A stretch of 64,000 nucleotides of DNA from an uncultured Candidatus Peribacteria bacterium (GCA_964358505.1 CAYHOS010000001.1:22947-86946); one strand, 5' to 3'; positions 1 through 15,804 are shown, counted from the stretch's first letter. The notes: generated by a model from the sequence alone, not told the origin. Made by a program: numbers and translations.

Positions 1-103
1 GCGGAAATGGACATGGGAATCGGCCATGGGAGTGCATAATACCACAGAATGACTGCATGAATAGCGCTCGATCGAAAAACGAAAAACGTGATAGGATCGC
101 CGC

Positions 104-811
104 ATGTTCTTCCAGACATCCTGGGACGACGGCTGCGCGCTGGATTTGCGCATTGCAGGGCTCCTTGAGCGCTACGGCCTCAGTGGGACCTTCTACGTCT
201 GTCCCCGGGAACAGCACGGTGCCTCGCTTCTGGAGGAACGGGACATTCGCTCGCTCGCGGAACGTCACGCGATCGGAGCGCATACGTTGACGCACCCCCG
301 CTTGACGCGGATCCCCCTCGCGGACGCCGAGCGCGAGATCCGCGGGAGCAAAGCATGGGTGGAACGCGTGACGGGGAAGCCCTGCACGAGTTTCTGCTAC
401 CCGTACGGTGACGTGAATGCCGAAGTGCGCGGACTCGTGGAACGCGCGGGATTCGCGGGCGCGCGAACCACGGAAGACTTCCGCTTTACCTCCAAAGACC
501 CCTTTCTCCAACCGGTGACGCTCCAGGTTTCCCCGTTCCCCTGGCGCAAGCGGTTCCATCCGCCGTGGAAAATCCTGGATCCTCTCGGGCCTGCGCGTCA
601 CGCCTGGACACGCACGCGCGGCTTCGATCTTCCGCTCTCAGCCTTCACCTCTTGGTCAGCCCTGGCGATGGCGTTGTTGTACCGCGCACAGCCGGATGAG
701 AAATTGTTCTTCCACCTCTACGGGCATAGCCGCGAGATCGAGCGCTACGGGATGTGGGGGGCATTGGAGACCTTCCTGGCTCACGTCGGCCGCTCCGGCA
801 AGGAAGGGTAA
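104..811 (+). CDS. polysaccharide deacetylase (NodB/CE4 homology domain)
   Basis: 235-aa ORF with 'TSWDDGC' Asp-Asp motif, 'HTLTHP' His motif and 'FCYPYG'. TAGGAT box lies 6 nt upstream of the ATG. Confidence 0.75.
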   Translation: MFFQTSWDDGCALDLRIAGLLERYGLSGTFYVCPREQHGASLLEERDIRSLAERHAIGAHTLTHPRLTRIPLADAEREIRGSKAWVERVTGKPCTSFCYPYGDVNAEVRGLVERAGFAGARTTEDFRFTSKDPFLQPVTLQVSPFPWRKRFHPPWKILDPLGPARHAWTRTRGFDLPLSAFTSWSALAMALLYRAQPDEKLFFHLYGHSREIERYGMWGALETFLAHVGRSGKEG

Positions 812-1864
812 TCACTTCAAATCTGCCCACACCACCACTTCCCCCGCGACGAGGGACTTGGTAAGGGTTTTGCCTACCACCGTGCGTGCCTCTGCGGGGG
901 CGATGCCCGTGCCTGGCCTGCGGATGGCGAGCATGTCCGCGCTCAGCATGGTTCCCGCAGGCAGGTCGCGCGCGGCGGTTACGCTGCGGCGGCTCACGGC
1001 GCGTACCTCCGCCTCGCACGGCTGGCACTTCTTCTCGCCGTCCCCCAGCACCTCGAGCGGGATGTTCACGCCCTTGAGGAACTTGGAGTCGCGGATGCGG
1101 CGGACCATTTCGGCCAGCTCATCCGGCTCCAGCGAGGCCGCGTGATCGGGCCCGACCATCGTGCGGTCGAGCGTGTAGTGCTTTTCCACGATCTGCGCGC
1201 CGTATGCCGCGGCCATCACCGTGACATTGATGCCCACCGTGTGGTCCGAGTAGCCGACGGGGACGGGGAATACGCGGCGCAGCGTGTCCATGGCCCTCAG
1301 GTTGGTCTGGTTGACGGGTGAAGGGTAGGAGCTCACGCAGTGAAGGAGCACGAAGGGGACGCGCGCTCGCTCGAAAGGTTCCACCGCTGCGCGGATCTCC
1401 TCCAGTGTCGCCTGCCCCGTGGAGAGGATGGTGGGGACGCTCAACTCCGCCATACCCTGCATGAAGGGGGTGTTGGTGATCTCGCTGGAGGGGATCTTGA
1501 TGGCCTTCACGCCCATCCCCGCCAGGAAGCGCGCCGAGGCGATGTCGAAGGGCGTAGTGATGAAATCGATGCCCCGCCTCTCGGCGTACGCCTTCAGTTC
1601 CCGGTATGCATCGTGCGGCAACGTGAGGCGACGGAGCATGGCCTTCTGGTTTTCCTCTCCGCTGCGTTCCTGGTACGGCGCCAGGGGCGCGACGTCGGAC
1701 GCAAGTTCGTCGGGATCGAAGAGTTGGAATTTGACGGCGTCGGCGCCCGCCTCCACCGCCACGTCAATGAGTTCCTGCGCCAAGCCCGGTTCGCCGTTGT
1801 GGTTCACTCCCGCTTCGGCAATCACGTACACGCCGCCGGGACGGAGGGGAAGGAGACGAGCCAT
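812..1864 (-). CDS. neuB: NeuB-family nonulosonic acid synthase (Neu/Leg-type), copy 1
   Basis: 350-aa ORF with 'VIAEAGVNHNG' and 'DAVKFQ' TIM-barrel motifs and a C-terminal SAF-like domain. Paralogous to the pseI-like gene at 25852. Confidence 0.85.
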   Translation of the reverse strand: MARLLPLRPGGVYVIAEAGVNHNGEPGLAQELIDVAVEAGADAVKFQLFDPDELASDVAPLAPYQERSGEENQKAMLRRLTLPHDAYRELKAYAERRGIDFITTPFDIASARFLAGMGVKAIKIPSSEITNTPFMQGMAELSVPTILSTGQATLEEIRAAVEPFERARVPFVLLHCVSSYPSPVNQTNLRAMDTLRRVFPVPVGYSDHTVGINVTVMAAAYGAQIVEKHYTLDRTMVGPDHAASLEPDELAEMVRRIRDSKFLKGVNIPLEVLGDGEKKCQPCEAEVRAVSRRSVTAARDLPAGTMLSADMLAIRRPGTGIAPAEARTVVGKTLTKSLVAGEVVVWADLK

Positions 1865-1922
1865 GGGGATGTCACCCTACCTCCTTGGCGACGGAGGGGC
1901 AAGAACGTATACACTGTCCCCG

Positions 1923-2696
1923 ATGAAGACGCGCATCATCCCCCGCTTGGACGTGAAGGGGCCCACCATCGTGAAAGGCATCCACATGGAAGGATTGCGC
2001 GTGATGGGCGATCCGGCTGCGCTGGCGCGGAAATACTACGAGCAAGGCGCCGACGAACTCTGTGTGATGGACACCGTCGCAAGTCTCTACGGGCGCAGCC
2101 CGGATTTCGACTTGATGCGGTCGATCGCGAACGAGCTCTTCATCCCGCTCACGATGGGCGGGGGCATCCAGTCGCTGCACGACATCACGAACTTCCTGCG
2201 CGCCGGAGCGGACAAGGTGGCAGTCAACACCAACGCCATTCACAATCCACGGCTCATACCGGAAGCGGTGCGGCAGTTCGGATCCCAGTGCATCGTGCTC
2301 TCCGTCGAAGCGAAGCGCGTCGGTCCCGGGCAACCGCCGCAGGGCGGAAATTGGGAAGCGTTCATGGAAGGCGGGCGCGAGCACTCGGGGAAGGACGCCA
2401 TTGAGTGGATCAAAGAAGCGCTGGACCTCGGCATCGGGGAAATCCTCCTGACATCGATCGATCAAGATGGCACGCGGGGCGGCTTCGATCTGGAGCTCAT
2501 CCGCGCCGTCACATCCTTCGCGACGGTGCCGGTGGTGGCGCACGGCGGTGCCCGGGACGCGGCGGCACTCCGCGAGGCGCTGGACGCCAAAGCCGACGCC
2601 GTTGCGCTCTCTTCCATCCTCCACTACAACGATACTTCCGTCGGCGCCCTCAAGCGCGAGCTGCATGCTACCGGCGTTCCCATCCGCCTCCCCTGA
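1923..2696 (+). CDS. HisF-like cyclase subunit (WbuZ type) of sugar amidotransferase complex, copy 1
   Basis: Internal ATG of ORF 1419..2696. Carries 'RIIPRLDVKG' and 'LTMGGGI' HisF signatures. Stop lies 2 nt before the next ATG. Confidence 0.85.
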   Translation: MKTRIIPRLDVKGPTIVKGIHMEGLRVMGDPAALARKYYEQGADELCVMDTVASLYGRSPDFDLMRSIANELFIPLTMGGGIQSLHDITNFLRAGADKVAVNTNAIHNPRLIPEAVRQFGSQCIVLSVEAKRVGPGQPPQGGNWEAFMEGGREHSGKDAIEWIKEALDLGIGEILLTSIDQDGTRGGFDLELIRAVTSFATVPVVAHGGARDAAALREALDAKADAVALSSILHYNDTSVGALKRELHATGVPIRLP

Positions 2697-2698
2697 CC

Positions 2699-3334
2699 AT
2701 GCCCCGCATCCTCGTTGTCGACTACGGCGTCGGAAACATGCACAGCATCCTCAAGGCGCTGCGCCGCTTCCACGAGGATGTCGCGCTGAGCGAGGATGCC
2801 GAAGAGCTGCGCGCGGCATCCGCGCTCGTTCTGCCCGGGCAGGGCGCGTTCGCCTCGGGCATGGAGGGGCTCCGCATGCGCGGCCTCCTGGATGAGGTGA
2901 AGGATGCCGCGGCAGGGGGAAAAGCTATCCTGGGCATCTGCCTGGGCGCACAGCTTCTGCTGGAGAAGGGATACGAATTCGGGGAATGGGAAGGGTTGGG
3001 GCTCCTGCCGGGGAACGTGGTGCGCTTCCCCCCGCTCCAGGACAAGGCGAAGACGCCGCACATGGGATGGAGCGCCATCGAGGAGAACGGCGCGGGCACG
3101 TGGAGGGGCACCGCGTTGGAAGGCGTCCCTTCCGGAGCAGAGATGTACTTCATCCATTCGTACATTCTCCAACCGAGTGACTCTTCGCACACCCTCTCTA
3201 CCACGCTCTACGGCGGGCTGCGTTTCCCTTCGACAATCGGGAAGGGGAAGATCATCGGATGCCAGTTCCATCCGGAGAAGAGCGCAAGGGAAGGCCTCCG
3301 TATTATCGAGAACTTCGTGCGGATGGCGCATTGA
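2699..3334 (+). CDS. HisH-like glutamine amidotransferase subunit (WbuY type), copy 1
   Basis: Internal ATG of ORF 2405..3334. Carries 'ILVVDYGVGNMHS', 'GICLGAQLL' (nucleophile Cys) and 'QFHPEKS'. Confidence 0.85.
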   Translation: MPRILVVDYGVGNMHSILKALRRFHEDVALSEDAEELRAASALVLPGQGAFASGMEGLRMRGLLDEVKDAAAGGKAILGICLGAQLLLEKGYEFGEWEGLGLLPGNVVRFPPLQDKAKTPHMGWSAIEENGAGTWRGTALEGVPSGAEMYFIHSYILQPSDSSHTLSTTLYGGLRFPSTIGKGKIIGCQFHPEKSAREGLRIIENFVRMAH

Positions 3335-3337
3335 CGG

Positions 3338-4576
3338 TCACGTCACCTGCTGCCGAAGCTTCCACTCGCTACTCACCTTCTCCCACAGGTGCGGGGAGCG
3401 CCAGCTGTCCACCACGTCGTGGAACTGCCGCTCCGTGATGTCGCAGTACTCCAGGAATTCCTTGAAGTATCTCTTGGGGAACTCCCCGTCGAACTTGCGC
3501 ACCAGCGCCACGCCCTCCTCCCGCGTGATCTTGCCGTCCCGGATCTCATGCGCCGTCTCGGACGTTGCGCGGCCGATGCCGAACTTGATGAACGCCATGT
3601 AGAAATGGAATCCGTCCAGCTTGTCGTCCAGGCTGGCGTACTTGGAGTACGTCCCCTCCGTCCGCTCCGGGTTTGCCGTGAATCCCGTGTGCTGCGTGGA
3701 GTAGTAGAAGTTCTCCTGCGGATCCCAGAATTTGTAGTAGCTGTAGAAGTGGATCTCCACCTTGGTCTTCTGGATCTCCGCGAAGGGCGGCGCGAAGTAC
3801 GGAGAGAGGTCCTCGTCCGTAGCCCCGTGCTCCTTCCAGAACGCCGGCGGCTTGCCGGAGAAGTAGTGCTTGTCCTGGTCGGTGACTTCGCGCGTGGGCT
3901 TGTAGGCGTTCTTCATGTCGCCCCCGTACTCCACTTCCCCGTTCTCCCCGTAGAAGATGAGGGGGATGTTGTACTTGACGGCAACGTGCAGCGGGAAATT
4001 GTAGACGCCGTAGATGAAAGGCTGGAAGGGGTCCGCCATGTGGATGAACGACAGCTTCGTGAGAAGGCGGCTGGAACTCTTCTTGGGCGTGAAGAGGATA
4101 TGGTTGAATCCGGACTCCACGAACCGATCCAGGTTCTGCCGCCCGATGTCTGTATAGAGAAGGGGAGACCATGTGACCGTGAGCGGATGCATGCCGTACA
4201 CCTCCTTCAGCTGGTGCGCTACGTAGGAACCGTCCTTGCCGCCGCTCCCGGGGACGAGCACGTCGAAGGTGCCATCGTTCTTGCGGTGGCGGTCGCACAG
4301 TTCCCGCAGCTCCTTCTCCCGCGCGGCCCAATCCACCTGGCGCTTGTATTCCGCGTAGCGGCAGGCACTGCAGACGCCCTCCCCGTCGAACGTGATGCGG
4401 GGCCGCTGGTTGCTGATGGTGCACCTGGCGCAGAAGCGCACGGTCTCGGGGAGGCCGTACTCAACACTGGTATTGTGTCTCTGCAATGCCAAAGACGGAA
4501 GATTGTCAGGGATGGACGTATGGTACCATACCGCCATGACGCCACAGGACAACCGCTGGAAAATCTGGGACAACAT
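3338..4576 (-). CDS. N-acetyl sugar amidotransferase (PseA/WbuX/WbpG family), copy 1
   Basis: Cys-rich N-terminal 'CARC...GVCSAC' followed by PP-loop 'SGGKDGS'. Start is ambiguous (4576, TTG 4573 or 4537). The 5' end overlaps the divergent gene at 4536. Confidence 0.8.
   Translation of the reverse strand: MLSQIFQRLSCGVMAVWYHTSIPDNLPSLALQRHNTSVEYGLPETVRFCARCTISNQRPRITFDGEGVCSACRYAEYKRQVDWAAREKELRELCDRHRKNDGTFDVLVPGSGGKDGSYVAHQLKEVYGMHPLTVTWSPLLYTDIGRQNLDRFVESGFNHILFTPKKSSSRLLTKLSFIHMADPFQPFIYGVYNFPLHVAVKYNIPLIFYGENGEVEYGGDMKNAYKPTREVTDQDKHYFSGKPPAFWKEHGATDEDLSPYFAPPFAEIQKTKVEIHFYSYYKFWDPQENFYYSTQHTGFTANPERTEGTYSKYASLDDKLDGFHFYMAFIKFGIGRATSETAHEIRDGKITREEGVALVRKFDGEFPKRYFKEFLEYCDITERQFHDVVDSWRSPHLWEKVSSEWKLRQQVT
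4524..4529 (+). promoter_or_regulatory. -10-like TGGTACCAT, 6 nt upstream of ATG 4536
   Basis: Recurrent pattern. Confidence 0.45.
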
Positions 4577-5324
4577 GAAATCCTACGGGGAAGTGCTCTA
4601 CAAGCGCGCAACCGGGGAAGCGCCGGAAATGGAGAGCAGCAAGGCGGCTGCGCGGCGCCTGCAGGGCGTGCTCAAGGAAGGGGATCGCGTGCTGGACGTG
4701 GGCTGCGGCGCCGGCCACTACCTGCGGTCGCTGCGCAACGCCTTCGCGTTCCCGTTCACGTACACCGGCATCGACGCCACACAGTCGTACGTGGCATTGG
4801 CCGCTCAAGCCTTCGCCCATGATCCCCAGGCGGACTTCAAGCATGGTGACATCGAGGCGCTGCCCGCGGAGGACCGTTCCGGGGATGTCGTCCTGTGCAT
4901 GAACGTGCTGCTCCACCTCCCCCGCATCCTCCCGGCCATGCGCGAACTCTGGCGCGTGACGGGCCGGACGCTCCTCGTCCGCACCATGGTGGGCGCGAAG
5001 AGCTTCCGCATCAAGCAGATACGCGAATGGGAAGGGGAGAGGAAGGGCCAGGAGGATCCTCTCTTCGATGCTGACGGAGAACCGCACAGGTTCCACTACT
5101 TCAACATCTACTCGGAGCAATACATCAAGTGGATCTGCTCCACGCTGCCCGGTGCGGCCTCCTGCAGTATCGTGCAGGACAAGGATTACGACCCCGCCGC
5201 CCTCACGGCAGCCGCGTGGCCGGACAAGGACAAGCCCGGCGACCTCACGCAGACGGTAGCCGGCATGCAGGTGAACGGCTCCATCATCGAACCATGGGCG
5301 TTCATCCGCGTCGATCGAGGATGA
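4536..5324 (+). CDS. class I SAM-dependent methyltransferase
   Basis: Motif I 'VLDVGCGAGHY'. TACCAT box 6 nt upstream of ATG 4536 supports this internal start of ORF 4392..5324. Confidence 0.7.
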   Translation: MTPQDNRWKIWDNMKSYGEVLYKRATGEAPEMESSKAAARRLQGVLKEGDRVLDVGCGAGHYLRSLRNAFAFPFTYTGIDATQSYVALAAQAFAHDPQADFKHGDIEALPAEDRSGDVVLCMNVLLHLPRILPAMRELWRVTGRTLLVRTMVGAKSFRIKQIREWEGERKGQEDPLFDADGEPHRFHYFNIYSEQYIKWICSTLPGAASCSIVQDKDYDPAALTAAAWPDKDKPGDLTQTVAGMQVNGSIIEPWAFIRVDRG

Positions 5325-5331
5325 GCGGGGG

Positions 5332-6924
5332 CTACCCCATGGCGAGCGCCGATTGCTTCCGTAATTCTTCCGCCTGCGGGGCGGCGAGGACGGTGCCGTT
5401 GGGTTTGACTGCCTCTTGATGGATCCGCACGATCTCCTCGCATACGCGGGCAACGTGCTCGGGGCGCAAATTCGCTGAGGAGGGGAGACTGAGGCCCGTG
5501 TCGCCCAGCCGCTCGCTCACGGGCAGATGCTGACTATTGGCGTAGATCGGCTGCTTGTGAAGCGGAGGAAAGAACGGACGCGTGTCGATGCCGCGTTCCT
5601 TGAGCAGGTCCATCAGCGCGTCACGCGAATAGCCGAAGCGTTCGGCATCGATGACGATGGAATAGAGCCAGTACACGTTACGCGCCCAGGAGGCGCAAGC
5701 CGGCAGCGTCATGCCCGGCACACCCTCGAGTCCCTGCCGGTACAGGTCGGCGATCTTCAGTTTTGCATCGATAACGTCACTGATCCGTTCCATCTGTGCC
5801 AAGCCAAGAGCCGCCTGGAGGCTCGTGAGCCGATAGTTGTACCCCAGCACCGTATGCCAGTAGCGGCGTTCCGCCGACATGCCGTGGTCGCGCAGGAGGC
5901 GCATCTTCTCCGCCATGGCATCACTGTTGGTCACGACCATTCCGCCTTCGCCCGTCGTGACGATTTTGTTGCCGTAGAAGCTGAAGATGCCGATATCGCC
6001 GATGCTCCCCACGGGTTTCCCGCCGCACAGCGCACCGTGCGCCTCCGCCGCATCTTCCACCAAGGCGACCTTGTGGCGTCGTGCGATGCCCGTGAGTGCG
6101 CCCATGTCCGCCGGATGCCCGTACAAGTGCACGGGGATGATGGCGCGTGTGCGGTGCGTGATGGCCGCTTCAGCCGCTTGGGGATCGATGGTCCAGGTGA
6201 CCGGATCGCAATCCACGAAAACGGGCGTTGCGCCGGTGTATGCGACGGCGTTGGCAGTGGCGATGAACGTGAGGGAGGGGACGAGCACCTCGTCTCCCGA
6301 GCCGATGCCCAACGCCAGCAGACCCAAGTGCAGTGCCGCCGTGCCATTGGAAACGGCTATGGCATGTTTCACACCGCAGAATCTCGCGAAGATTCCTTCA
6401 AATTTCGTCACGAAGGGGCCGGCGGAAGAAATCCATCCGCTTACCACGCATTCCGTGACGTACTGCAATTCGCGCTCCCCAACGGAAGGGGAAGCCACGG
6501 GCAGGGCGATGCGTTGATCGAACGCCGCGGCGTCCACCACCCTGCCCCGTTCATCCAGGAGCGGGATGAGGCGCACCTTCTCGTGGAAAAGGCCGGCAAT
6601 GGATTCCGGAGGATCACTGATGCGTGCGGTAACGGAATCCGGCCGCGCGACCCCCAAAACGGGAGTATCCAACCCCTGCCCCCTCAGCAGAGCCCGCCGC
6701 AAGTCCCCGTCCGTCACCAACCCTGCAAAGCGGCCGTCCGCCGCCACGAGGAAAGCGGCACCCAGGCCTGCACGATCAATGGCGCGCATTGCCTCGCGGA
6801 TCGTGCCCGAAACGGGTACGCACATGGCGCGGATCTGGTCCGGAGTGAACACGGGGGGAGTATACCCGAGAACCCCCTCAGAGGGTTTCCAGAAACCGTC
6901 GTTGCGCCAGAAGCGCCTCTCCAT
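5332..6924 (-). CDS. CBS-pair domain fused to DegT/DnrJ/EryC1 sugar aminotransferase
   Basis: N-terminal region of about 130 aa has two CBS-like repeats ('GTIREAMRAID...GLVTDGDLRRALL'). C-terminal part has 'SNGTAALH' and 'FSFYGNKIVTTGEGG' (PLP Lys). Start is 6924 or 6825. Confidence 0.8.
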   Translation of the reverse strand: MERRFWRNDGFWKPSEGVLGYTPPVFTPDQIRAMCVPVSGTIREAMRAIDRAGLGAAFLVAADGRFAGLVTDGDLRRALLRGQGLDTPVLGVARPDSVTARISDPPESIAGLFHEKVRLIPLLDERGRVVDAAAFDQRIALPVASPSVGERELQYVTECVVSGWISSAGPFVTKFEGIFARFCGVKHAIAVSNGTAALHLGLLALGIGSGDEVLVPSLTFIATANAVAYTGATPVFVDCDPVTWTIDPQAAEAAITHRTRAIIPVHLYGHPADMGALTGIARRHKVALVEDAAEAHGALCGGKPVGSIGDIGIFSFYGNKIVTTGEGGMVVTNSDAMAEKMRLLRDHGMSAERRYWHTVLGYNYRLTSLQAALGLAQMERISDVIDAKLKIADLYRQGLEGVPGMTLPACASWARNVYWLYSIVIDAERFGYSRDALMDLLKERGIDTRPFFPPLHKQPIYANSQHLPVSERLGDTGLSLPSSANLRPEHVARVCEEIVRIHQEAVKPNGTVLAAPQAEELRKQSALAMG

Positions 6925-7720
6925 TCGGGAATTTCGCCTCCATGATCCAGGGGAGACTCTGGAGAGCCGGCGTGCGGAGCACCCCGGTGATCCAGCTGCC
7001 CTCCTCCACCGGGCGGTGCTGGTCGGCGCTCCCGTCGTTGTCGTGGAGGTGGAACGCGCCGATGTACGGTGCAAGGACTGCGATGAATTCCATGCGGTTG
7101 AATCCGTAGGTCGCCGCGGAGACATTCAGGTGCCCCGTATCGACCAGGATGCCGAGGAAAGGGGAGGCGATCATTCCAAAGAATTCCTGGAACTCATCCG
7201 TGGTCTGGAGCAGGAGCGTCCCCATGTTGTGACGTTCGCACACGTTGTTCTCCACGAGCAGCCGCACCCCCGCCCGCTCCGCGAAGGGGAGAAGTCCACG
7301 GATACTTTCCACGAAACGACGCAGTGCTTCCTGCCCCGCATCCGGCCTGTCCGGCTTGGGGAAGATGAATGCCAGTGTAGGATCGGTGACGAAGCCTGCG
7401 TGGACGGAGTACAGGGGGGCGCCGAGCGCGGCGCTGAGGGAGAGAGCACGTCGGACGAGCGCCATGCTCCTCTCCCGGATGCGCGCATCCACCGACGCCA
7501 GGTTGAGGACGAAAGGTTCCGGCGGAGGCGGGAAGTAATTGTGGAGGAGATAGGGACCGGGCCCCAGCAGCTGCGACGTACATGCGCCCTCGATGGTGAC
7601 CTTGTCGCCCAACTCCACCGCTTCCATACCGAGCTCCCGGTACAGCCGCAGACGATCGGTGAGCGGCTGCGCGCCGCCCAGGCACGCGGTGGAAGCATAG
7701 ATGGAGGAATGCGGCTTCAT
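6878..7720 (-). CDS. sugar phosphate isomerase/epimerase (xylose-isomerase-like TIM barrel)
   Basis: Carries 'LLVENN' and 'HLHDNDG' metal-site motifs. ATG 7720 overlaps the upstream stop (ATGA). Confidence 0.65.
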   Translation of the reverse strand: MKPHSSIYASTACLGGAQPLTDRLRLYRELGMEAVELGDKVTIEGACTSQLLGPGPYLLHNYFPPPPEPFVLNLASVDARIRERSMALVRRALSLSAALGAPLYSVHAGFVTDPTLAFIFPKPDRPDAGQEALRRFVESIRGLLPFAERAGVRLLVENNVCERHNMGTLLLQTTDEFQEFFGMIASPFLGILVDTGHLNVSAATYGFNRMEFIAVLAPYIGAFHLHDNDGSADQHRPVEEGSWITGVLRTPALQSLPWIMEAKFPNGEALLAQRRFLETL

Positions 7721-8490
7721 CGGTGAACGGAAAGGAGACGGTCGTACTCTTCCATGCTCGGTACCGGATACTTCTTCCCCCGGAGTTCGACCATGGCCGG
7801 CGGGTAGGGCGGAAAGTCGAGCGCGCGGATGAAGCAGCTGACGCGCCCGCGGTCCCACGAGGGATCGATCCTGCCGCCATACGGCACGGCGCGCGGATGG
7901 TAACTGCCGCCGGGCGCCTGCGGCGTCCCGCGTTCTCCCCGGAGCGCCAGCGCAACGGCCTCGGGAAACACGGCGAGTCCTTCGGCGATCTGGCGGTGGA
8001 AGAGCGTGTATGCCGAATCGTCCTTGCCGATGGGGATGATGCGCTGGAGCAGGATATTCCCCTCGTCGAACTTCTCGGTCATCCAGTGGTAGGAAAAACC
8101 CGTCACGTCATCGCCCCCGAGGATCGCCCACGGGACGGAGAAGCAGCCGCGGTGCTTGGGCAGGAGCGACGGATGGAGATTGACGCACCCACCCGTGGGG
8201 ATGGCGAGGAGGTCGCCGGGGATGCGGTCGCGGTAGTGCAGGCTGAAGAGCAGCCGGGGCCGCCGTTCCTGCAGCCATTGCTTGGCAGCGGACTCCTTCG
8301 CCGCCGACTGGCAGACGCTGATGCCGTTGTCCGCCGCGCAAGCGAGGAGCGGGCGGTTGCGTTCGTCGTCGCCGTGCGTGAGGAGGCCAACCTGTTCCGG
8401 ACGGTAGCCGAGTGCGGACAGGTGGCCGATGGCGAGGATGCCGGGCGCACCGTACGCTGCGAGTATCAATGATATGGAACGGTCTGTCAT
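7717..8490 (-). CDS. formyltransferase (Fmt-like sugar N-formyltransferase candidate)
   Basis: Canonical 'NLHPSLLPKHRG' formyltransferase motif. ATGA overlap with the upstream gene at 8487-8490. Confidence 0.75.
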   Translation of the reverse strand: MTDRSISLILAAYGAPGILAIGHLSALGYRPEQVGLLTHGDDERNRPLLACAADNGISVCQSAAKESAAKQWLQERRPRLLFSLHYRDRIPGDLLAIPTGGCVNLHPSLLPKHRGCFSVPWAILGGDDVTGFSYHWMTEKFDEGNILLQRIIPIGKDDSAYTLFHRQIAEGLAVFPEAVALALRGERGTPQAPGGSYHPRAVPYGGRIDPSWDRGRVSCFIRALDFPPYPPAMVELRGKKYPVPSMEEYDRLLSVHR

Positions 8491-9200
8491 GCGGGGAGAA
8501 CGCGTAACGCGGCTTCCAAGAAAGGCATATCGTCGAGAGTGTCCAGTTCGCGGCTTCGCTCCAAAGGCGCAACGTAGCCGCGGACATCGCCGGCGAAGAG
8601 CGCGCCGTTCACGAGTGCCGAAGAGACGCGAACCGCGTCCACGAGGCCGGAGAGCATATACACCGGAGGACAGAGCTGGCGCCGGGGGAAGGAACTTTCG
8701 TCGTGGCCGGGGATGAGCGGCGTGAGCCGCCCCTCCGCATCCATCCCTTTCATCCAGTACGGGTGCTGTTCCACCGTACACACCGAACGGACGGCATCCG
8801 CGCCCGTGGAAGAGAGGAGGCCCAACGCGCCCCGAATGTCTTCCGCTGTACGGAGCGGCGACGTAGGACGGAGCCAGAGGACCACATCCGGCTTCCACTC
8901 CTCCCGTTCGGCGAACCACTCGATGGCATGTCGGAAGACGGGGAAATCGGGAGTGTCGTCTGCAGCGATGGCGGAAGGACGCAGGAACGGGACTTCGGCC
9001 CCTTCGCGACGTGCAATGTCGGCAATTTCCCCGTCATCCGTGGAGACGACGATGCGGCTGCACGCGCCGGACGCTTTGGCGACGGCAATGGTCCACGCGA
9101 TGAGCGGCTTTCCCCCCAGGGGAAGGATGTTTTTACGCGGCACACTCTTGGAACCCCCGCGGGCGGGGATGAGCGCCAGGACTGCGGAAGCGGAAGCCAT
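8487..9200 (-). CDS. neuA: acylneuraminate-type cytidylyltransferase (CMP-NulO synthetase)
   Basis: N-terminus 'ALIPARGGSKSVPRKN' is typical of the CTP_transf_3 family. TACAAT box 9 nt upstream of ATG 9200. Confidence 0.8.
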   Translation of the reverse strand: MASASAVLALIPARGGSKSVPRKNILPLGGKPLIAWTIAVAKASGACSRIVVSTDDGEIADIARREGAEVPFLRPSAIAADDTPDFPVFRHAIEWFAEREEWKPDVVLWLRPTSPLRTAEDIRGALGLLSSTGADAVRSVCTVEQHPYWMKGMDAEGRLTPLIPGHDESSFPRRQLCPPVYMLSGLVDAVRVSSALVNGALFAGDVRGYVAPLERSRELDTLDDMPFLEAALRVLPA

Positions 9201-9209
9201 GGGAGGCTC

Positions 9210-9215
9210 ATTGTA
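9210..9215 (-). promoter_or_regulatory. extended -10-like TGGTACAAT, 9 nt upstream of ATG 9200
   Basis: Recurrent pattern. Heads the 9200->5332 operon. Confidence 0.5.
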
Positions 9216-9314
9216 CCAGAGGCCCGGCGGTCGCAGGCCGCCATTCCTCCCATTCTTTCGCGTTCGCCCCCCCATCCCCTCCCTGTGCCCCGGGGCTGTT
9301 GCGGTTTGCATAAC

Positions 9315-10286
9315 ATGATGTGGGATGTTACCGTCATATCAACAATCTTTTCCCCTTTCTTGGCCATGAGAAGCAAATCAGTCGCCTCCGTGACACGGAA
9401 AATTTACTTCAAGCAGCACTTGAATTTCGCGAAAGACCCCGTGCTGCTGCACAGGTGCGTGAAGATGTTTTCCGATCCGACATATTTCAGCCTCACGAAG
9501 AAGGATTTCGAAGGGATACATATCCTCGACGCGGGTTCGGGGAACTCGGGATTCCTGGAAATCGCCATGATAGGCCTGGGCGCGGGTCACGTCACCTGCC
9601 TCGACATCGGCAAACAATGGATCCCCGCACTGCGCACGCTGCTCAAGAAGTACGCACCGCCGGAGAAGTTTGATTTCGTGGATGCAAGTACGGACAAGAT
9701 CCCATTTCCGGACAATCACTTCGATATGGTTTTTTCACAGGGCGTTCTCATGCACCTGAACAACATGGAACAGACCAAGCGCGCCTGGAAAGAGCTGGCC
9801 CGCGTAACGAAGAGGGGAGGGTATCTGTACGTCTCCCTCGGCAATCCGTCGGGCTTGCTGGAAGACGCAGTCATCCCCGCTGTCCGGAAGTACTACAACA
9901 CCAACAAGGAATTCAAGCACTTCATTGATACACAAAATCCGGACATGTGGAAAGGCTTCCTCAAGTCGCTCTCGGAGAGCATGCAGAAGCGCACGGGGGA
10001 ACATTTCGCGTACGAAAATATCGCCCCCCTGCTCGATTGGGATTTCTGCACCATGCTCCAGAATACGATACAGTGCCCCCATCGATACATCACGCAAACG
10101 GACCAGGACCATGTGCTCGCCATGTACAAACAGAACAAGTTCAAGCCTCCGCGGCGATGCAGGAGGTTCGTCGTGAGACACAATATCAGGAAGTTCTTCG
10201 CGCCTCTGCACTTTGGCGATGTCCCATACCTGTCCAAACTCGTGTACGGGCCGGGCTGCCTGGAATACATCGCACAGAAACGCTGA
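9315..10286 (+). CDS. class I SAM-dependent methyltransferase (low-GC gene)
   Basis: Motif I 'ILDAGSGNSGF' and 'FDMVFSQGVLMHL'. Visibly A/T-richer codon usage than its neighbours. Start is 9315, 9318 or 9366. Confidence 0.7.
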   Translation: MMWDVTVISTIFSPFLAMRSKSVASVTRKIYFKQHLNFAKDPVLLHRCVKMFSDPTYFSLTKKDFEGIHILDAGSGNSGFLEIAMIGLGAGHVTCLDIGKQWIPALRTLLKKYAPPEKFDFVDASTDKIPFPDNHFDMVFSQGVLMHLNNMEQTKRAWKELARVTKRGGYLYVSLGNPSGLLEDAVIPAVRKYYNTNKEFKHFIDTQNPDMWKGFLKSLSESMQKRTGEHFAYENIAPLLDWDFCTMLQNTIQCPHRYITQTDQDHVLAMYKQNKFKPPRRCRRFVVRHNIRKFFAPLHFGDVPYLSKLVYGPGCLEYIAQKR

Positions 10287-10305
10287 CCGGCCGCCAACGC
10301 AAGCG

Positions 10306-11826
10306 TTACGATATCTCCTTCCACGACGGGGCGGAAGCGACCCCTGTGATCTCATCCTGCAACGCAGCCAGTTCTTTCCCTATCGCGTTTTTCAGCGCCT
10401 TCACGTGCTCTTCCTCTGATTTGCCGGTGACAAGAAGGAACCATCGGTCCACGACACCCATCATGCACGTCTCCTCCATCGCCTTGAGGTAGAGATGCGT
10501 GCTCCAGGGCGTCGGCGCCTCCCTGCGCTCGAATACGGCGCGCACGGCCTCTGCGCAGTCCCGCGCCGTTCGGATGGGGAAGACCCCGCGGGCGTACTGG
10601 TAGAACCATGAGCCGAAGAGGAAGACCTGCTTCCCTCGGAAGAGCGCCTCGAAGCCGGCGGATCCCGTGATCGTCGCCACAGCCGTACAGCGCTCGCGAA
10701 GTATGAACGTATCCACATCTTTGGGAATGAGCCTCACCTTCTCCAGTTCCAGAAAATCCCTGTAGTACTCCGTGTTGCGGGAAAGCCATCCGCCCCGGCG
10801 CGGGTGCTCCTTGACGTAGAGAAGGACGCCATCGGGGAGCGTCGCATTGAGGAGGCGCGCCGCCAAAATCTGGTCCGCGTACACGCCCCCCAGGGGGACG
10901 GTGCTCAATTCGGGTTGGGAGTGCAGCGGGAAGTATACGAAGGGCTTCGTGAGGTCCGGGACCGATGCATGGGCATTATAGAAATGCTCCGTGCGGCGGA
11001 CGGCGCGCCATCGCTGCAGCGCTTCCCAAGCACGCGCCCACCCGGCGGGCGTGAACAGGATGCGCAGCGCAGGCAGGAAGAGGGCGAAGGGACGGTACAG
11101 GGCCAGCGTGCGCAGATGATACCCATGGGTAGGGAGGGGGATGGACATGAGCACCGGGGGCTTCCCCGCGACGGAGAGGAGATCCCGCTCGTAAGAGGCG
11201 AACGGCTCCCGCAGGGGGACGCTTTCCGGAGCGCCTGTGGGACGCTCGGCCAGGAGGACGCGGTACCGTTCGCCGATCTGCGGGGTGACATGCCGCACAT
11301 CCCTGCTTGCGCAAGCGACATCGCGCAGGGTGGTGATGTCAAAGAACAGGACGGGGATCCCGCGCTGCCTGCAGAGGTAATAGATGACGATGTCCGGGAT
11401 CTCATGCGGGGTCCAGGCGGAGAGGTACAAGTTGATCCTCCGGCGCGTGAGGTAATCGTTCCAGAACTGCAAGTGCCGCAGGTACCAGAGTTTGCGCGTG
11501 AGGTACGGGACAGCATGCTTGTCCTCCAGCCGCGTGACGACGGCCATGAACACCGCTTCACACTCCCTCATCTGCAGGATCAATTCCTCATCGAGGGGGG
11601 CGATGCCGTTCCAGTCCACGCCCGCGTAATGGGCTTTGCGGATTTCGCTGCTCGCGAAGAACTCCTGTTGCGCCGCGGGGATCCCCGCGAACGGCGGGAG
11701 TTCCCCCGTCGAGATATCCGCGCAGAACGCGAACGGATGCGCTTGCATCACCCCCTCGAGCGCCCGCCGCGTGAAGGCAAGCCCGAACCGCCCGACGATG
11801 GCACGGATGGGGATAGGAGGGGTCAC
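10306..11826 (-). CDS. KpsS/Capsule_synth-like glycosyltransferase (candidate NulO transferase), paralogue A
   Basis: 'FPLHSQPELST', 'LYVKEHP' and 'AVATITGSAGFEAL' match the KpsS layout. GTG 11826 chosen because TATACT lies 7 nt upstream and the N-terminal length then matches the paralogue. Confidence 0.6.
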   Translation of the reverse strand: MTPPIPIRAIVGRFGLAFTRRALEGVMQAHPFAFCADISTGELPPFAGIPAAQQEFFASSEIRKAHYAGVDWNGIAPLDEELILQMRECEAVFMAVVTRLEDKHAVPYLTRKLWYLRHLQFWNDYLTRRRINLYLSAWTPHEIPDIVIYYLCRQRGIPVLFFDITTLRDVACASRDVRHVTPQIGERYRVLLAERPTGAPESVPLREPFASYERDLLSVAGKPPVLMSIPLPTHGYHLRTLALYRPFALFLPALRILFTPAGWARAWEALQRWRAVRRTEHFYNAHASVPDLTKPFVYFPLHSQPELSTVPLGGVYADQILAARLLNATLPDGVLLYVKEHPRRGGWLSRNTEYYRDFLELEKVRLIPKDVDTFILRERCTAVATITGSAGFEALFRGKQVFLFGSWFYQYARGVFPIRTARDCAEAVRAVFERREAPTPWSTHLYLKAMEETCMMGVVDRWFLLVTGKSEEEHVKALKNAIGKELAALQDEITGVASAPSWKEIS

Positions 11827-11833
11827 GAGGGTG

Positions 11834-11839
11834 AGTATA
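11834..11839 (-). promoter_or_regulatory. -10-like TATACT, 7 nt upstream of GTG 11826
   Basis: Part of the recurrent TANNNT-N6-10-start pattern. Confidence 0.45.
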
Positions 11840-11914
11840 CCAAACGTCTGCGGAACAAGGCCGGAGTTTTCCCGCAGGCCACTGCAGCATCCTTGAACTG
11901 GGGGGACCAATGTG

Positions 11915-11920
11915 TATCAT
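11915..11920 (+). promoter_or_regulatory. extended -10-like TGTGTATCAT, 6 nt upstream of ATG 11927
   Basis: Recurrent TANNNT-N6-10-start pattern. Confidence 0.5.
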
Positions 11921-11926
11921 CACGCC

Positions 11927-13411
11927 ATGCGGAAGCCCAATGTGATCATCAAGGCGTTCGACGGGGACTCGACGGACGCCGTGACTCTGGAGAGGGCGTT
12001 TAGGGACATCCCGCTGGGCACCTGCATCACCATCGGGGAGGCCGTCCCGTGGGAGACGAGGATCGCCGCGGAGAAGCGCATCGAGATGCGGGCGGAGCGC
12101 GTGCGGATCTGCGAGTACCCCGGTGTGGACTGGAACGCGATATTGCCGCTCGACGAGGGGATCATCGAGGACATGCGGCATGCGGAGGCGGTGGTGATGC
12201 AGATGGTCGAGCGCTATGCGCGGTACATGGAGCGATACAGGATTGCGGGGGATATTCCGTACCATGAGCGCCGGCGGCAGTACTTCGCGCACCTGCGGTA
12301 CTGGAACCACGTGCTGGAGACGGAACGCATCGACCTCTTCCTCATGAACCACATGCCGCACCAGTGCTACGATTACGTCCTGTACTATCTCTGCAAGCGC
12401 AAGAACATTCCCGTTCTCTACATGAACCGTTTCTTCGCCATGGATGGGATGTACATTTCGGAGAATTGGGAACACCCCGCCCCTGACCTGCAGGCCGCAT
12501 TCCGGAGGATACGCGAGGAGTACGCGGATCCGCAGCGGCCGATCCCTCTCTCCAAGAATTACGAATACTACTTCTCATTCTACAGAAAGAAGACACCCGA
12601 GAAGCCGTGGTACATGGAGGAGAACATCTACACGAGGCCGAACTTCGTGCGGAAGTGGTGGCGCAAAGGCCTCAAGGTGCTTCGCAGGGAACCGCTGCGC
12701 TTCACTGCCTCCATGCTTTCCCCGGCCTTCTGGTCGCGGAAACTGGGTCAGCACCGGGCGATCGCATTCTACAAACAGCACACGCAGCAGCCCGATCTCT
12801 CCCAACCGTACGTGTACGTCCCCCTCCATCTGCAGCCGGAGGCTACCACCATCCCCCTCGCAGGGGCGTTCGTGGACCAGGAACGCGTCGTACAGCTCCT
12901 GGCCGCCCATCTCCCTCCCGGGATCCGCCTCTACGTAAAGGAGCACCCGGCGCAAGGGGAGGAATGGCGCAGCGAGGATTTCTACAAGACGCTCCTCAGC
13001 ATCCCCTCCGTCACGCTCATCCCCAAGGAAGCGGACACGTATGCGCTCCTCGACCATTGCATCGCCGTGGCTTCCTGCGCGGGCACCGTGCTCTTCGAGG
13101 CGAGCATCCGCCAGAAGCCTTCCTTCATGTTCGGCCACGACATCTGGCAGTACGGGCCGGGCGTGCACTGCATACGCACGTCCCAGGATTGCCGCGCGGC
13201 TGTGGAGGATATCCTGAACAACAGGGCATCGCACTCCGTGCGGGACGTGCGCCTCTACCTCAAAGCCTTCGACGAAAGCGCCACCCCTTTTCCCGGTCCG
13301 ACAGAAAGCCCCGTGGACAATGCCACGGATGAGGAGAAGGCGGTGAACGTGGGGGCGCTCCTCGAGCGGCATATCCGGAGGGTTTTGAATCTTCCGGCGC
13401 CGCAGTCCTGA
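11927..13411 (+). CDS. KpsS/Capsule_synth-like glycosyltransferase, paralogue B
   Basis: 'VPLHLQPEATT', 'LYVKEHP' and 'AVASCAGTVLFEA'. Alignable along its length to 10306..11826. TGTGTATCAT extended -10 lies 6 nt upstream of the ATG. Confidence 0.6.
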   Translation: MRKPNVIIKAFDGDSTDAVTLERAFRDIPLGTCITIGEAVPWETRIAAEKRIEMRAERVRICEYPGVDWNAILPLDEGIIEDMRHAEAVVMQMVERYARYMERYRIAGDIPYHERRRQYFAHLRYWNHVLETERIDLFLMNHMPHQCYDYVLYYLCKRKNIPVLYMNRFFAMDGMYISENWEHPAPDLQAAFRRIREEYADPQRPIPLSKNYEYYFSFYRKKTPEKPWYMEENIYTRPNFVRKWWRKGLKVLRREPLRFTASMLSPAFWSRKLGQHRAIAFYKQHTQQPDLSQPYVYVPLHLQPEATTIPLAGAFVDQERVVQLLAAHLPPGIRLYVKEHPAQGEEWRSEDFYKTLLSIPSVTLIPKEADTYALLDHCIAVASCAGTVLFEASIRQKPSFMFGHDIWQYGPGVHCIRTSQDCRAAVEDILNNRASHSVRDVRLYLKAFDESATPFPGPTESPVDNATDEEKAVNVGALLERHIRRVLNLPAPQS

Positions 13412-13424
13412 TCGCGCGGACCCA

Positions 13425-14735
13425 TTACGTCAGCCGCTTGAAGCCCGATTGTGCAACGGGGCCTTTGAGCTTCTCCGGGAGGGAACCGTCCTGGAGCGCG
13501 CGGGCGATGGCATCAAAAGCTTCTCCCGATGCGCCGAGGTACCCCGCCACATGTTCTTCCGTATGGGCGAACGTGGCGTAGAACTTGTCCGGGGCCAGGT
13601 ACCCTCGCTCCAGCATCAGCTGCGTGAAGAGCGTCTTGGGGGCTCCCCCCAGCGCCGAGTGGATGTGAAAGTGGGCGAGCGGCTCGATGCCCGTCACGTC
13701 CACCTTCAGGCTCGCTGCGTCCGCCGACCGCTTCCACCCTTCTTGGACCAGTCGCCCGATGCGCATCAGATGCTCATGAACCCGTGCGCGCCCGAACTTC
13801 CGGATGGTCGCCACCGCGGCCGCGGGTCCGATGCGTTCCGTCCAGTTGGTGGAACTGATGAAGGTGCTCTGCGCCGCTTCCATCACCGGGCGCCGCCCGA
13901 TGACGGCGGCGATGGGATAACCGTTGCCAAGCGCCTTGGCGAACACGGCGATGTCAGGCTCCACCCCCAGCGCCAGGTGCGCGCCGCCATGGGTGATGCG
14001 GAAACCGGACGTGACCTCGTCGAATACCAGCACGGCGCCGATGGCCGTCGCAATCTCCCGCACACGTTGAAGGAACCCGTTCTCGGGCCCGGAATCGCGC
14101 AGCGGCTCCATGACGATGGCGCCGATCTCCTTGCCATGCCCGGCGACGATGCGCTCCAGTTCCTCGATCTTGTTGTACCGGAAGGGGAGCATGGTCCCCT
14201 TGAGTCCCCGCGGCACGCCCTTCGGCTCCAGACCCGGGAGCAAGTGCCCGTCGAGCGCGCCGTCATCGGCAAGGTTCGCCGCCAGGTACCAGTCGTGCCA
14301 GCCGTGGTACCCGCAGAACGCCACTTTCTCCCGCCCCGCATACGCCCGCGCAATGCGGACGGCCATCGCCATGGCCTCCCCGCCGCCGCGCGCGAACCGC
14401 GCCATGGAAGACCAGGGATGGAGGCCGGTGAGGAGTTCCGCAAGTTCCACCTCTTCGGGACAATTCAGGGTAGAGGCCGTGCCGGCATCGATAGCCGCGC
14501 GGACAGCGGCATCCACGTCGGGGTCGGCGGCACCCAGCACGCAGGCGCCGATGGCGTTGTACCCCATGTCCACGTACCGGTTACCGTCCAGGTCCCACAC
14601 CTCCGCCCCGCGGACACGGCTGTAGTATGCGGGCCATTGGTCGGGCAGGTGGAGTTCCGGCCTCTTCGAGAGGAGCTGCGTCCCCCCGGGAATGAGGGTT
14701 TTTGCCTTGCGGTAAAGATCTTGGCCTTTCCCCAT
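13425..14735 (-). CDS. class III aminotransferase (glutamate-1-semialdehyde 2,1-aminomutase-like)
   Basis: 436-aa ORF with 'LIPGGTQLLSKR' and 'FDEVTSGFR', the HemL-family layout. TACAAT box 9 nt upstream. Confidence 0.75.
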   Translation of the reverse strand: MGKGQDLYRKAKTLIPGGTQLLSKRPELHLPDQWPAYYSRVRGAEVWDLDGNRYVDMGYNAIGACVLGAADPDVDAAVRAAIDAGTASTLNCPEEVELAELLTGLHPWSSMARFARGGGEAMAMAVRIARAYAGREKVAFCGYHGWHDWYLAANLADDGALDGHLLPGLEPKGVPRGLKGTMLPFRYNKIEELERIVAGHGKEIGAIVMEPLRDSGPENGFLQRVREIATAIGAVLVFDEVTSGFRITHGGAHLALGVEPDIAVFAKALGNGYPIAAVIGRRPVMEAAQSTFISSTNWTERIGPAAAVATIRKFGRARVHEHLMRIGRLVQEGWKRSADAASLKVDVTGIEPLAHFHIHSALGGAPKTLFTQLMLERGYLAPDKFYATFAHTEEHVAGYLGASGEAFDAIARALQDGSLPEKLKGPVAQSGFKRLT

Positions 14736-14744
14736 ACGGACGGG

Positions 14745-14750
14745 ATTGTA
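14745..14750 (-). promoter_or_regulatory. -10-like TACAAT, 9 nt upstream of ATG 14735
   Basis: Recurrent pattern. Confidence 0.45.
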
Positions 14751-14817
14751 CCGTCGTCACGGAGTGCCGCAAGACGCGCAGTTTGAACAATGAGTGGAAA
14801 TGGAGGGGATATGGCTC

Positions 14818-14823
14818 TAGGAT
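14818..14823 (+). promoter_or_regulatory. -10-like TAGGAT, 9 nt upstream of pseB ATG 14833
   Basis: Recurrent pattern. Confidence 0.4.
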
Positions 14824-14832
14824 GTCTCTGTC

Positions 14833-15804
14833 ATGGATGCGTTGAATGACGCTTCAATCCTCATCACCGGCGGCACGGGTTCATTTGGACGGAAGTTCTG
14901 CCAGACTCTCCTGCACGACTACCGCCCTAAAAAGCTCATCGTCTTCAGCAGGGATGAGCTGAAGCAGCACACTATGCGTCATGAGGGGTTCGACGTCGAG
15001 CCGATGCGCTACTTCATCGGGGATGTCCGCGACCGCGATCGCCTGCGACGCGCGATGTCGGGTGTCGACTACGTGATCCATACCGCCGCGCTCAAGCATG
15101 TCTCCTCGTGCGAGTACAACCCGCTGGAGGCGGTGGAGACGAACATCGGCGGTGCGCGCAACGTCATCGAAGCGGCGCTCGACGCCCACGTGAAGAAGGT
15201 CATTGCCCTCAGCACGGACAAGGCGGTAAACCCAGTCAACCTCTACGGCGCCACCAAGCTCGTCTCCGAGAAGGTCTTCTCCCAGGGCAACGCCTACAGC
15301 GGCATGGGAAACACCCGGTTCTCCTGCGTCCGGTACGGGAACGTCGTGGGGAGCAGCGGGAGCGTGGTACCCATCTTCGTCCGGCAACGCGCACAGGGCG
15401 CAATCACCATCACGGACGAGCGGATGACGCGCTTCTGGATTTCCCTGGAAGAGGCGGTCCGCTTCGTCATCCGGTGCCTGGACACCATGCGGGGAGGGGA
15501 AGTCTTCGTTCCCAAGATCCCCAGCATGCAGGTCGTAGACCTCGCGGACGCCCTCGCGCCGGGATGCACAAAGACCTTCACGGGGATCCGGCCGGGCGAG
15601 AAGCTGCACGAAACCCTCCTCTCCGCCGACGAGGCACGGCATGCGGTGGAGCGGGAGGATATGTTCGTCATCGAACCGGAGGAGCCCTCCTGGGATTACC
15701 ACAAGTGGGAAGGGCCGCCCCCTGCGGAGGGATTCCTGTACGCGAGCAATACGAACACCGTGTGGCTCACGGCAGAAGACTTGAAGGCCAAGATCGGCGC
15801 ATGA
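14833..15804 (+). CDS. pseB: UDP-N-acetylglucosamine 4,6-dehydratase (inverting)
   Basis: Near full-length resemblance to H. pylori FlaA1/PseB: 'ILITGGTGSFG', 'FSRDELKQ', 'YGATKL', 'RYGNVVGSSGSVVP'. Confidence 0.9.
   Translation: MDALNDASILITGGTGSFGRKFCQTLLHDYRPKKLIVFSRDELKQHTMRHEGFDVEPMRYFIGDVRDRDRLRRAMSGVDYVIHTAALKHVSSCEYNPLEAVETNIGGARNVIEAALDAHVKKVIALSTDKAVNPVNLYGATKLVSEKVFSQGNAYSGMGNTRFSCVRYGNVVGSSGSVVPIFVRQRAQGAITITDERMTRFWISLEEAVRFVIRCLDTMRGGEVFVPKIPSMQVVDLADALAPGCTKTFTGIRPGEKLHETLLSADEARHAVEREDMFVIEPEEPSWDYHKWEGPPPAEGFLYASNTNTVWLTAEDLKAKIGA

Follow-up and report, generated by a model that had tools for sequence, protein, structure and literature searches.

Two N-acetyl sugar amidotransferase (NASAT) paralogues share one locus in the flagellin glycosylation island of Campylobacter jejuni and C. 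coli, namely PseA, for acetamidino pseudaminic acid (PseAm), and PtmG/Cj1324, for legionaminic acid (Leg); an N-methylated acetamidino derivative occurs there as well (PMC3766260, PMC3958885, PMC13130089). The ptmG/Cj1324 gene has been assigned to the conversion of CMP-Leg5Ac7Ac to CMP-Leg5Am7Ac (PMC3766260), and Campylobacter flagellin carries PseAm, LegAm, and Leg5AmNMe7Ac (PMC3958885). We analyzed a 64-kb stretch of DNA (hereafter, the window) from an uncultured Candidatus Peribacteria bacterium (GCA_964358505.1 CAYHOS010000001.1:22947-86946), in which a first-pass annotation had proposed two complete paralogous triads, each made of a NASAT with a dedicated HisH and HisF and each on its own nonulosonic acid (NulO) module. 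Open reading frames and profile matches confirmed both triads, profile scores bore out the family assignment, and the attachment to separate modules also held. Our best explanation, which we consider probable as a whole, is that the window comes from a groundwater bacterium and carries a surface-glycan locus, longer than 60 kb, with two separate NulO pathways and one triad for each. In its architecture, two cassette types that are already known occur together, a combination that recurs elsewhere and for which a functional analogue has been published.

The window shares two NASAT paralogues with the Campylobacter island and, as far as N-methylation is concerned, has a candidate methyltransferase gene. 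The island in Campylobacter is a flagellar one that includes maf genes and flaA/B; the window contains no flagellar genes and carries glycosyltransferases for polysaccharide together with an ABC exporter of the MsbA/HepA-like kind. Only one hisH/hisF-like pair is known from Campylobacter, next to pseA (Cj1314c/Cj1315c), whereas each NASAT in the window has its own pair. Another close counterpart is the NASAT of the Legionella pneumophila lipopolysaccharide locus (structure 8WEX; the ptmG homologue ORF28), a species in which the O-antigen is Leg5Am7Ac (PMC3766260). The NASAT of triad 1 (WbuX1) matched this protein over its full length with 366 bits, compared to 115 bits for the NASAT of triad 2 (WbuX2), and the Zn tetracysteine and the position of the PP-loop are kept. 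The Legionella protein differs in having the canonical PP-loop SGGKDS and an extra inserted segment; in WbuX1, as in 80/80 close relatives, the PP-loop reads SGGKDG. The same three-protein architecture is found in WbuX/WbuY/WbuZ of Escherichia coli O145 and in WbpG with HisH2/HisF2 of Pseudomonas aeruginosa O5 (TIGR03573/TIGR03572; PMC10607449), and two paralogues from Campylobacter and three from Vibrio vulnificus appear in an alignment in the paper on the NASAT structure (PMC10607449). The O145 and O5 systems differ from the window in that they use hexosamine substrates (L-FucNAc and ManNAc3NAcA) and have one triad per O-antigen cluster, whereas the triads in the window are tied to NulO modules. 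A NASAT/HisH/HisF trio is also present in Methanococcus maripaludis (AglX/AglY/AglZ), and the HisF of triad 2 scored 263 bits against the corresponding model, NF038364; that system is archaeal and concerns a ManNAc3NAmA-type sugar of the N-glycan, and both HisFs of the window fall below the NF038364 cut-off of 310. The AglX/AglY/AglZ trio is needed for the acetamidino group on the glycan sugar.

Two triads in two nonulosonic acid modules

Genes were chosen by codon-position G+C and then checked against profile libraries (Pfam and NCBIfam). A protein was counted as a NASAT if its whole-protein score against TIGR03573 exceeded the curated cut-off of 203.2 bits, and WbuX1 and WbuX2 scored 354.1 and 329.2 bits, respectively; for the triad assignments as a group, the profile E-values ruled out chance. 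In triad 1, HisF1 (1923-2696, plus strand; PF00977, 210.8 bits, E 2.5e-62; alternative start at 1863 in some gene callers) is followed by the glutaminase subunit HisH1 (2699-3334, plus strand; TIGR01855, 183.8 bits, cut-off 105.4) and by WbuX1 on the minus strand (3338-4486, with the open reading frame extending to an ATG at 4576). Position 4486 is probably the true start of WbuX1 because the database gene call is 382 amino acids long (P0001). In the database, WbuX1 is called from a start other than 4576 or 4537 and HisF1 from one other than 1923, and exact-sequence look-ups from these positions gave no match. The hisH1 and wbuX1 genes are convergent, with stop codons 3 bases apart (3335-3337), and wbuX1 and the next gene, a methyltransferase, start divergently with about 25 bases between them (4487-4511). 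The 3-base space leaves no room for a terminator, and with spacing as short as this on both sides of wbuX1, promoters and terminators must lie inside the neighboring genes.

Triad 2 lies entirely on the plus strand and comprises WbuX2 (16396-17616), HisH2 (17638-18321, alternative start 17677; TIGR01855, 231.3 bits, cut-off 105.4), and HisF2 (18314-19072). The different gene orders that the first-pass annotation had described, including the convergent layout of triad 1, were therefore correct. Its description of triad 2 as colinear also stood; the overlap that it claimed applies to hisH2 and hisF2, which share 8 bases, and not to WbuX2 and hisH2, which are separated by 21 bases.

Triad 2 sits between a GNAT acetyltransferase gene and pseC, inside a complete pse operon that includes PseB (14833-15804, plus strand; TIGR03589, 471.4 bits, cut-off 407.75) and ends with PseI (25852-26940, plus strand; 439.3 bits, cut-off 340.25). 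PseC (19134-20291, plus strand; 439.9 bits, cut-off 423.5) and the PseG part of a PseG-GNAT fusion (22054-23544, plus strand; 215.8 bits, cut-off 153.55) likewise scored above their cut-offs, so that PseB, PseC, PseG, and PseI all exceeded the NCBIfam equivalog thresholds by which we recognized a Pse pathway. The remaining steps are represented by proteins of the right fold with scores below cut-off: the GNAT at 15845-16399 (plus strand; 48.9 bits to PseH, cut-off 93.1), the PseH-like GNAT of the fusion (36 bits), and a cytidylyltransferase (21275-22057, plus strand; 28 bits to PseF). Operon coupling is tight, above all between the GNAT and the NASAT, which overlap by 4 bases. The cassette GNAT-NASAT-HisH-HisF-PseC...PseI is kept in two relatives (L011 and L012), the GNAT-NASAT adjacency is kept in L009-L012, and in L009 the core GNAT-NASAT-HisH-HisF belongs to another NulO cluster; the database also includes a protein in which GNAT and NASAT are fused (P0228). 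L011 and L012 carry a 719-amino-acid cytidylyltransferase-GNAT fusion (L011, 7853-10012), compared to the PseG-GNAT fusion of the window.

Triad 1 abuts a NeuB/LegI-like NulO synthase (NeuB1; 812-1864, minus strand), which scored 381.9 bits against TIGR03569 NeuB_NnaB, below the cut-off of 399.65, and only 235 bits against the PseI model; it shares 46% identity with the synthase in the Leg cluster of Herbaspirillum. On the far side of WbuX1 are an S-adenosylmethionine methyltransferase (4512-5324, plus strand; Methyltransf_11/25) and, on the minus strand, a protein with a CBS domain and a LegC-like aminotransferase domain (5332-7125, start uncertain; DegT_DnrJ_EryC1, 446 bits; LegC TIGR04181, 368 bits, below the cut-off of 420), an AP_endonuc_2 TIM-barrel protein (6878-7720), a formyltransferase (7717-8490), and a CMP-NulO-type cytidylyltransferase (8487-9200; CTP_transf_3; PseF, 140.5 bits, below cut-off). 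The CBS domain lies in an N-terminal extension of about 200 residues, which is also present in L006 and L007; in canonical Leg clusters, this domain sits on the PtmE nucleotidyltransferase instead of the LegC-like aminotransferase. The methyltransferase is kept as the neighbor of WbuX1 in L004, L005, L006, and L007 and may be a candidate for N-methylating the acetamidino group.

NASAT subtypes and their HisF partners

Pairwise identity between the triads is 26% for the NASATs, 40% for HisH, and 41% for HisF, which argues against recent duplication; the alignment check proposed in the first-pass annotation thus pointed to ancient divergence. WbuX1 is 65-88% identical to proteins of Cohnella, Herbaspirillum, Sphingomonas, Rhizobium, and Bacteroidales, whereas the proteins that resemble WbuX2 at 60-81% identity form another set. 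Judged by these comparisons, the triads are ancient paralogues of different subtypes that were brought together, not the products of a duplication.

The sequence features suggest that WbuX1 belongs to a Leg-type NASAT subtype (type 1) and WbuX2 to a Pse-type one (type 2). A PP-loop of the form SGGxDS and a Zn-binding tetracysteine motif have been described for NASATs (PMC10607449). All four cysteines of the CxxC...[GN]xCxxC motif are invariant in both types (C25, C28, C45, and C48 in WbuX2 numbering), and the WbuX2 PP-loop, SGGKDS, fits the published form. To relate the subtypes to their company, we surveyed 58 GTDB species-representative loci centered on a type-2 NASAT and 29 metagenome loci centered on a type-1 NASAT, all at least 15 kb long. 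A NeuB1-like synthase was present in all 29 type-1 loci and a PseI-like one in none, and 36 of the 58 type-2 loci had a PseI-like synthase. In Herbaspirillum seropedicae and Cohnella soli, the type-1 NASAT is part of clusters with the order LegB-LegC-LegH-LegI-LegG-PtmE-NASAT-HisF-HisH-LegF. "Leg-type" here denotes the usual company of the subtype and should not be read as a proven product in the window. The canonical colinear order NASAT-HisF-HisH was found in 46/80 type-1 relatives and the convergent form seen in the window in 4/80; the latter looks as if the HisF-HisH pair had been inverted. The gene orders of the two triads are, on this comparative evidence, lineage traits.

The HisF barrels of the two triads differ in a reciprocal manner. 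We aligned them, in Thermotoga maritima numbering, with E. coli HisF and a reconstructed ancestral HisF (PDB 4EVZ), the sole housekeeping sequences in the alignment. From work on T. maritima HisF, we take R5, E46, K99, and E167 to form the ammonia gate and D11 and D130 to be the cyclase aspartates. HisF1 has D11/E130 (D130E) and HisF2 has L11/D130 (D11L), compared to D/D in both references, and the four gate residues, plus D98, are kept in both. The pattern extends well beyond the window: HisFs beside type-1 NASATs had D11 with E or Q at position 130 in 65/65 cases and never D130, HisFs beside type-2 or type-3 NASATs had L or Q at position 11 with D130 in 84/86, and the gate residues were kept in all but a few of the NASAT-linked HisFs surveyed. 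HisH1 and HisH2 keep the Cys-His-Glu triad (C81, H191, and E193 in HisH1 numbering), which is invariant in the alignment with E. coli HisH, with the Cys in GICLG and the His-x-Glu in FHPE. These residues suggest active glutaminases and HisF barrels with an intact gate and a crippled cyclase site.

A Leg-type triad can therefore be described by D130 changed to E/Q, the order NASAT-HisF-HisH, and the PP-loop SGGKDG, and a Pse-type triad by D11 changed to L/Q, the order NASAT-HisH-HisF, and the PP-loop SGGKDS. Gene order, PP-loop variant, and lost HisF aspartate are simple markers for separating the two types and can help annotate "second hisHF" genes correctly rather than as histidine biosynthesis. 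This reciprocal aspartate loss, together with the motif and order signature, is the most interesting and most useful by-product of the analysis. A tentative extension, which we regard as rather doubtful, is that the two HisF classes coevolved with their NASATs and that no NASAT docks on an ammonia-channel subunit other than its own, so that a locus amidinating two NulOs would need two complete trios. The locus offers a clean natural pair for asking whether NASATs and their HisH/HisF partners are mutually specific.

The first-pass annotation had held that one triad per locus is the norm, and the survey upheld this while showing that double triads are not rare. Two complete triads were present in 3 of the 58 type-2 loci (two HisH/HisF pairs in 5, two NASATs in 7) and in 5 of the 29 type-1 loci. 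Double triads thus occur in 5-17% of comparable loci and are fairly ordinary. The closest type-1 relatives (L006 and L007, 87% identical in WbuX1) have only triad 1 within 10 kb and only the HisH/HisF pair of triad 1 in the DNA available; the closest type-2 relatives likewise have one HisH/HisF pair only in the DNA available, and one triad-2 relative (L013) carries a diverged second NASAT. Unannotated double-triad NulO loci exist in Pseudolabrys (L069), Rhodospirillaceae (L073), an alphaproteobacterial single-cell genome (L092), and L109, L111, L120, L131, and L168. They resemble the window in that two complete NASAT, HisH, and HisF sets, no more than 10 kb apart, lie beside NulO synthases, and differ in that the partner of the type-1 or type-2 NASAT is usually a third, more divergent NASAT type, 25-34% identical to WbuX2; the pairing of type 1 with type 2 was seen in the window and probably in L064. 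Two NASAT genes with one HisH/HisF pair occur in L009, L013, L014, and L074, and the second NASAT there is often a divergent neighbor of the first. In these loci, unlike in the window, one ammonia-delivery pair may serve two NASATs. Because the co-occurrence is found repeatedly and a functional precedent for it is already in the literature, it opens no new question.

Proposed function and competing explanations

Based on gene context, the most likely role of triad 2 is to turn one N-acetyl group, on either a Pse intermediate or CMP-Pse, into an acetamidino group, giving PseAm, and triad 1 most likely acts in the same way on the NeuB1 product, giving a LegAm-like sugar. In the mechanism that we propose, HisH would hydrolyze glutamine and free ammonia, which would be conducted through the HisF-like barrel to the PP-loop NASAT; the latter would adenylate the acetamido oxygen with ATP, releasing AMP and PPi, and ammonia would displace the activated oxygen to give the acetamidino group. 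The triad 1 product could optionally be N-methylated by the neighboring methyltransferase. The chemistry, the channeling, and the exact substrates are inferred by analogy with PP-loop amidotransferases and imidazole glycerol phosphate synthase. What the sequence itself displays is intact glutaminase triads, an intact HisF gate, the loss of one cyclase aspartate per HisF, the PP-loop and Zn cysteines, and the gene context. An acetamidino group turns a neutral N-acetyl group into a positive charge on surface NulOs, and in Campylobacter such groups affect autoagglutination, host colonization, and phage protein binding (PMC3958885, PMC4690887). From this locus, one would predict a bacterium displaying two amidinated NulOs that differ in configuration.

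Several observations weigh against the reading of two separate NulO pathways with one amidinating triad each. Of the Leg pathway, module 1 holds only the LegC-like and NeuB/LegI-like proteins, both below cut-off, and the cytidylyltransferase, which falls short of what we required to call a Leg pathway; LegB, LegG (Epimerase_2), LegH (PglD-like), and PtmE were not found in the window. Module 1 is thus not a canonical Leg pathway, and its LegC-like and NeuB-like scores are just below the cut-offs. The WbuX1 PP-loop, SGGKDG followed by S, departs from the published SGGxDS, although its presence in 80/80 type-1 relatives indicates a subfamily trait rather than a defect. The best NCBIfam match of HisF1 was hisF, slightly above WbuZ. 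Amidination may act on the nucleotide-hexose, the free NulO, or the CMP-NulO, and a search of RNA runs found none holding triad 2.

The ranking of HisF1 (266 bits for hisF, 251.6 for WbuZ) would also fit the idea that one pair, most plausibly pair 1, is a housekeeping imidazole glycerol phosphate synthase lying in a glycan locus, and HisF1 keeps D11 and its D130E change is conservative. As a housekeeping HisF, we would have accepted a protein with at least 294.55 bits against TIGR00735, both D11 and D130, and a his-operon context. The hisF scores of HisF1 (266 bits) and HisF2 (265.7 bits) are below this equivalog cut-off, position 130 is E or Q throughout the type-1-linked HisFs, and in a neighbor-joining tree HisF1 grouped with HisFs of type-1 loci, with E. 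coli and ancestral HisF apart. HisF1 and HisF2 are each closer to the consensus-like ancestral HisF than to each other. Both pairs stand beside a NASAT outside a his operon, a linkage kept in 160 related loci and, for NASAT-HisF-HisH, in a proteobacterium (Herbaspirillum), a firmicute (Cohnella), and metagenome loci. No hisA/B/C/D/G/I gene was found in the 64-kb window or in about 6.7 kb of upstream sequence, the part examined of a contig (L004) that extends about 13.6 kb beyond the window start. With scores below cut-off, aspartate losses, and no nearby his genes, the housekeeping pair that the first-pass annotation had set against its own claim did not materialize; we consider such an origin highly improbable, and neither pair is, by these sequence criteria, a housekeeping one. 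HisF1 and HisF2 also fell below the cut-offs for WbuZ (251.6 and 296.5 bits, the latter just under 299.7) and NF038364 (AglZ/HisF2; 194.7 and 263.2 bits against 310), and their putative WbuZ/AglZ-type assignment draws on context and residues, not on family cut-offs. That the second triad is a recent and functionally redundant duplicate has next to no probability in our view: the same three families do recur 12 kb apart, but the 26/40/41% identities refute it, the PP-loop variants differ, each HisF lost another aspartate, orthologues from other organisms match each copy at 65-88% identity, and no DNA repeat links the two regions. The repeat search likewise found no long repeats flanking the triads, and there are no tRNA genes in the window; together, these results give no evidence for a mobile island or recent duplication. 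An assembly chimera that joined loci of two organisms could also account for the co-location of the triads, given that the sequence comes from a metagenome of low coverage (about 5-7x) and that, the parent contig aside, no single independent contig spans both triads. However, two assemblies, made from two groundwater samples, contain independent contigs that cover 1-6838, 2687-6017, and about 6060-28350 with 99.97-100% identity and overlap at 6060-6838 at about 100% identity, depth is even and no joints are seen where Logan contigs from two runs cover 1-20000, and G+C content is uniform (60-68%, about 63% overall). A chimera is therefore very unlikely.

Other alternatives concern the substrates. 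The first-pass annotation had offered either two amidination reactions or bis-amidinated sugars, of which the two separate modules favor the former and nothing supports the latter. Two NASATs within one pathway are conceivable, given that L009, L014, and L074 carry side-by-side NASATs with a single HisH/HisF pair in one pse-type cluster, and both triads could then act on N5 and N7 of the same NulO to give a bis-acetamidino sugar. We judge this quite improbable: the two triads are embedded in separate modules, each of which has a synthase, an aminotransferase, and a cytidylyltransferase to itself; the subtypes track different synthase types over 87 loci; and no bis-acetamidino NulO is described in the cited literature. 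Triad 1 might instead amidinate a non-NulO amino sugar of the FucNAc or ManNAcA type, as WbuX or WbpG do. The NASAT family includes hexosamine enzymes (PMC10607449), the window is rich in other sugar genes (RmlA/RmlB-like genes, dehydratases, and deacetylases), and module 1 has no canonical LegB/G/H. Against this are the NeuB1-like synthase in 29/29 type-1 loci, the presence of type-1 NASATs inside textbook Leg clusters of isolates, and the 366-bit match of WbuX1 to the NASAT of Legionella, with its Leg5Am7Ac O-antigen (PMC3766260), and we consider a non-NulO substrate unlikely.

Neighboring genes and host lineage

Both NulO modules hold a formyltransferase-type gene. In the pse operon, a GFO/IDH/MocA oxidoreductase (20295-21278, plus strand; Pfam) follows PseC, and a formyltransferase-like gene (23541-24239, plus strand; Pfam), a gene of unknown family on the minus strand (24243-25160), and a PIG-L deacetylase (25178-25855, plus strand; Pfam) lie between the PseG-GNAT fusion and PseI; a polysaccharide deacetylase (104-811, plus strand; profile match) flanks module 1, in which the TIM-barrel protein and the formyltransferase were also assigned by profile match. 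The formyltransferase and deacetylase genes hint at N-formyl or otherwise reacylated NulO variants besides the acetamidino forms. A Capsule_synth protein (10306-11826, minus strand; PF05159, KpsC/KpsS-like) is a candidate NulO transferase; a gene of this family adjoins NulO genes in relatives as well (L011, 12490-13944; L009, 13898-15466). L004 has genes for heptose activation and for a GT9 heptosyltransferase directly upstream of the window.

The labels on the genome bins of the nearest relatives are Patescibacteria, Peregrinibacteria, or Peribacteria, that is, candidate phyla radiation (CPR) bacteria (L004, L007, L009, L013, and L014), and the window contains no taxonomic marker genes. If the labels of these related genomes are right, the window belongs to a streamlined Peregrinibacteria-like genome. 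A locus of more than 60 kb with about 63% G+C under CPR labels points either to an unusually glycan-rich CPR lineage or to misbinned contigs.

A run of G18 directly followed by C8 (56393-56418) lies in the C-terminal part of a gene on the minus strand that encodes a 729-amino-acid GT4 glycosyltransferase (56123-58312); this tract could be phase-variable or could be a poly-G sequencing or assembly artifact in the low-coverage metagenome. A repeated palindrome built of 7-base units, (ACCAAnn)3-4, a short spacer, and (TTGGTnn)3-4, lies between codirectional minus-strand glycosyltransferase genes at 46776-46831, 50678-50749, 54014-54087, 57626-57650, and 58295-58371. The pattern TTGGTNNTTGGTNNTTGG had 20 matches in the window compared to 0.01 expected by chance, and these palindromic repeats could form long intercistronic hairpins.

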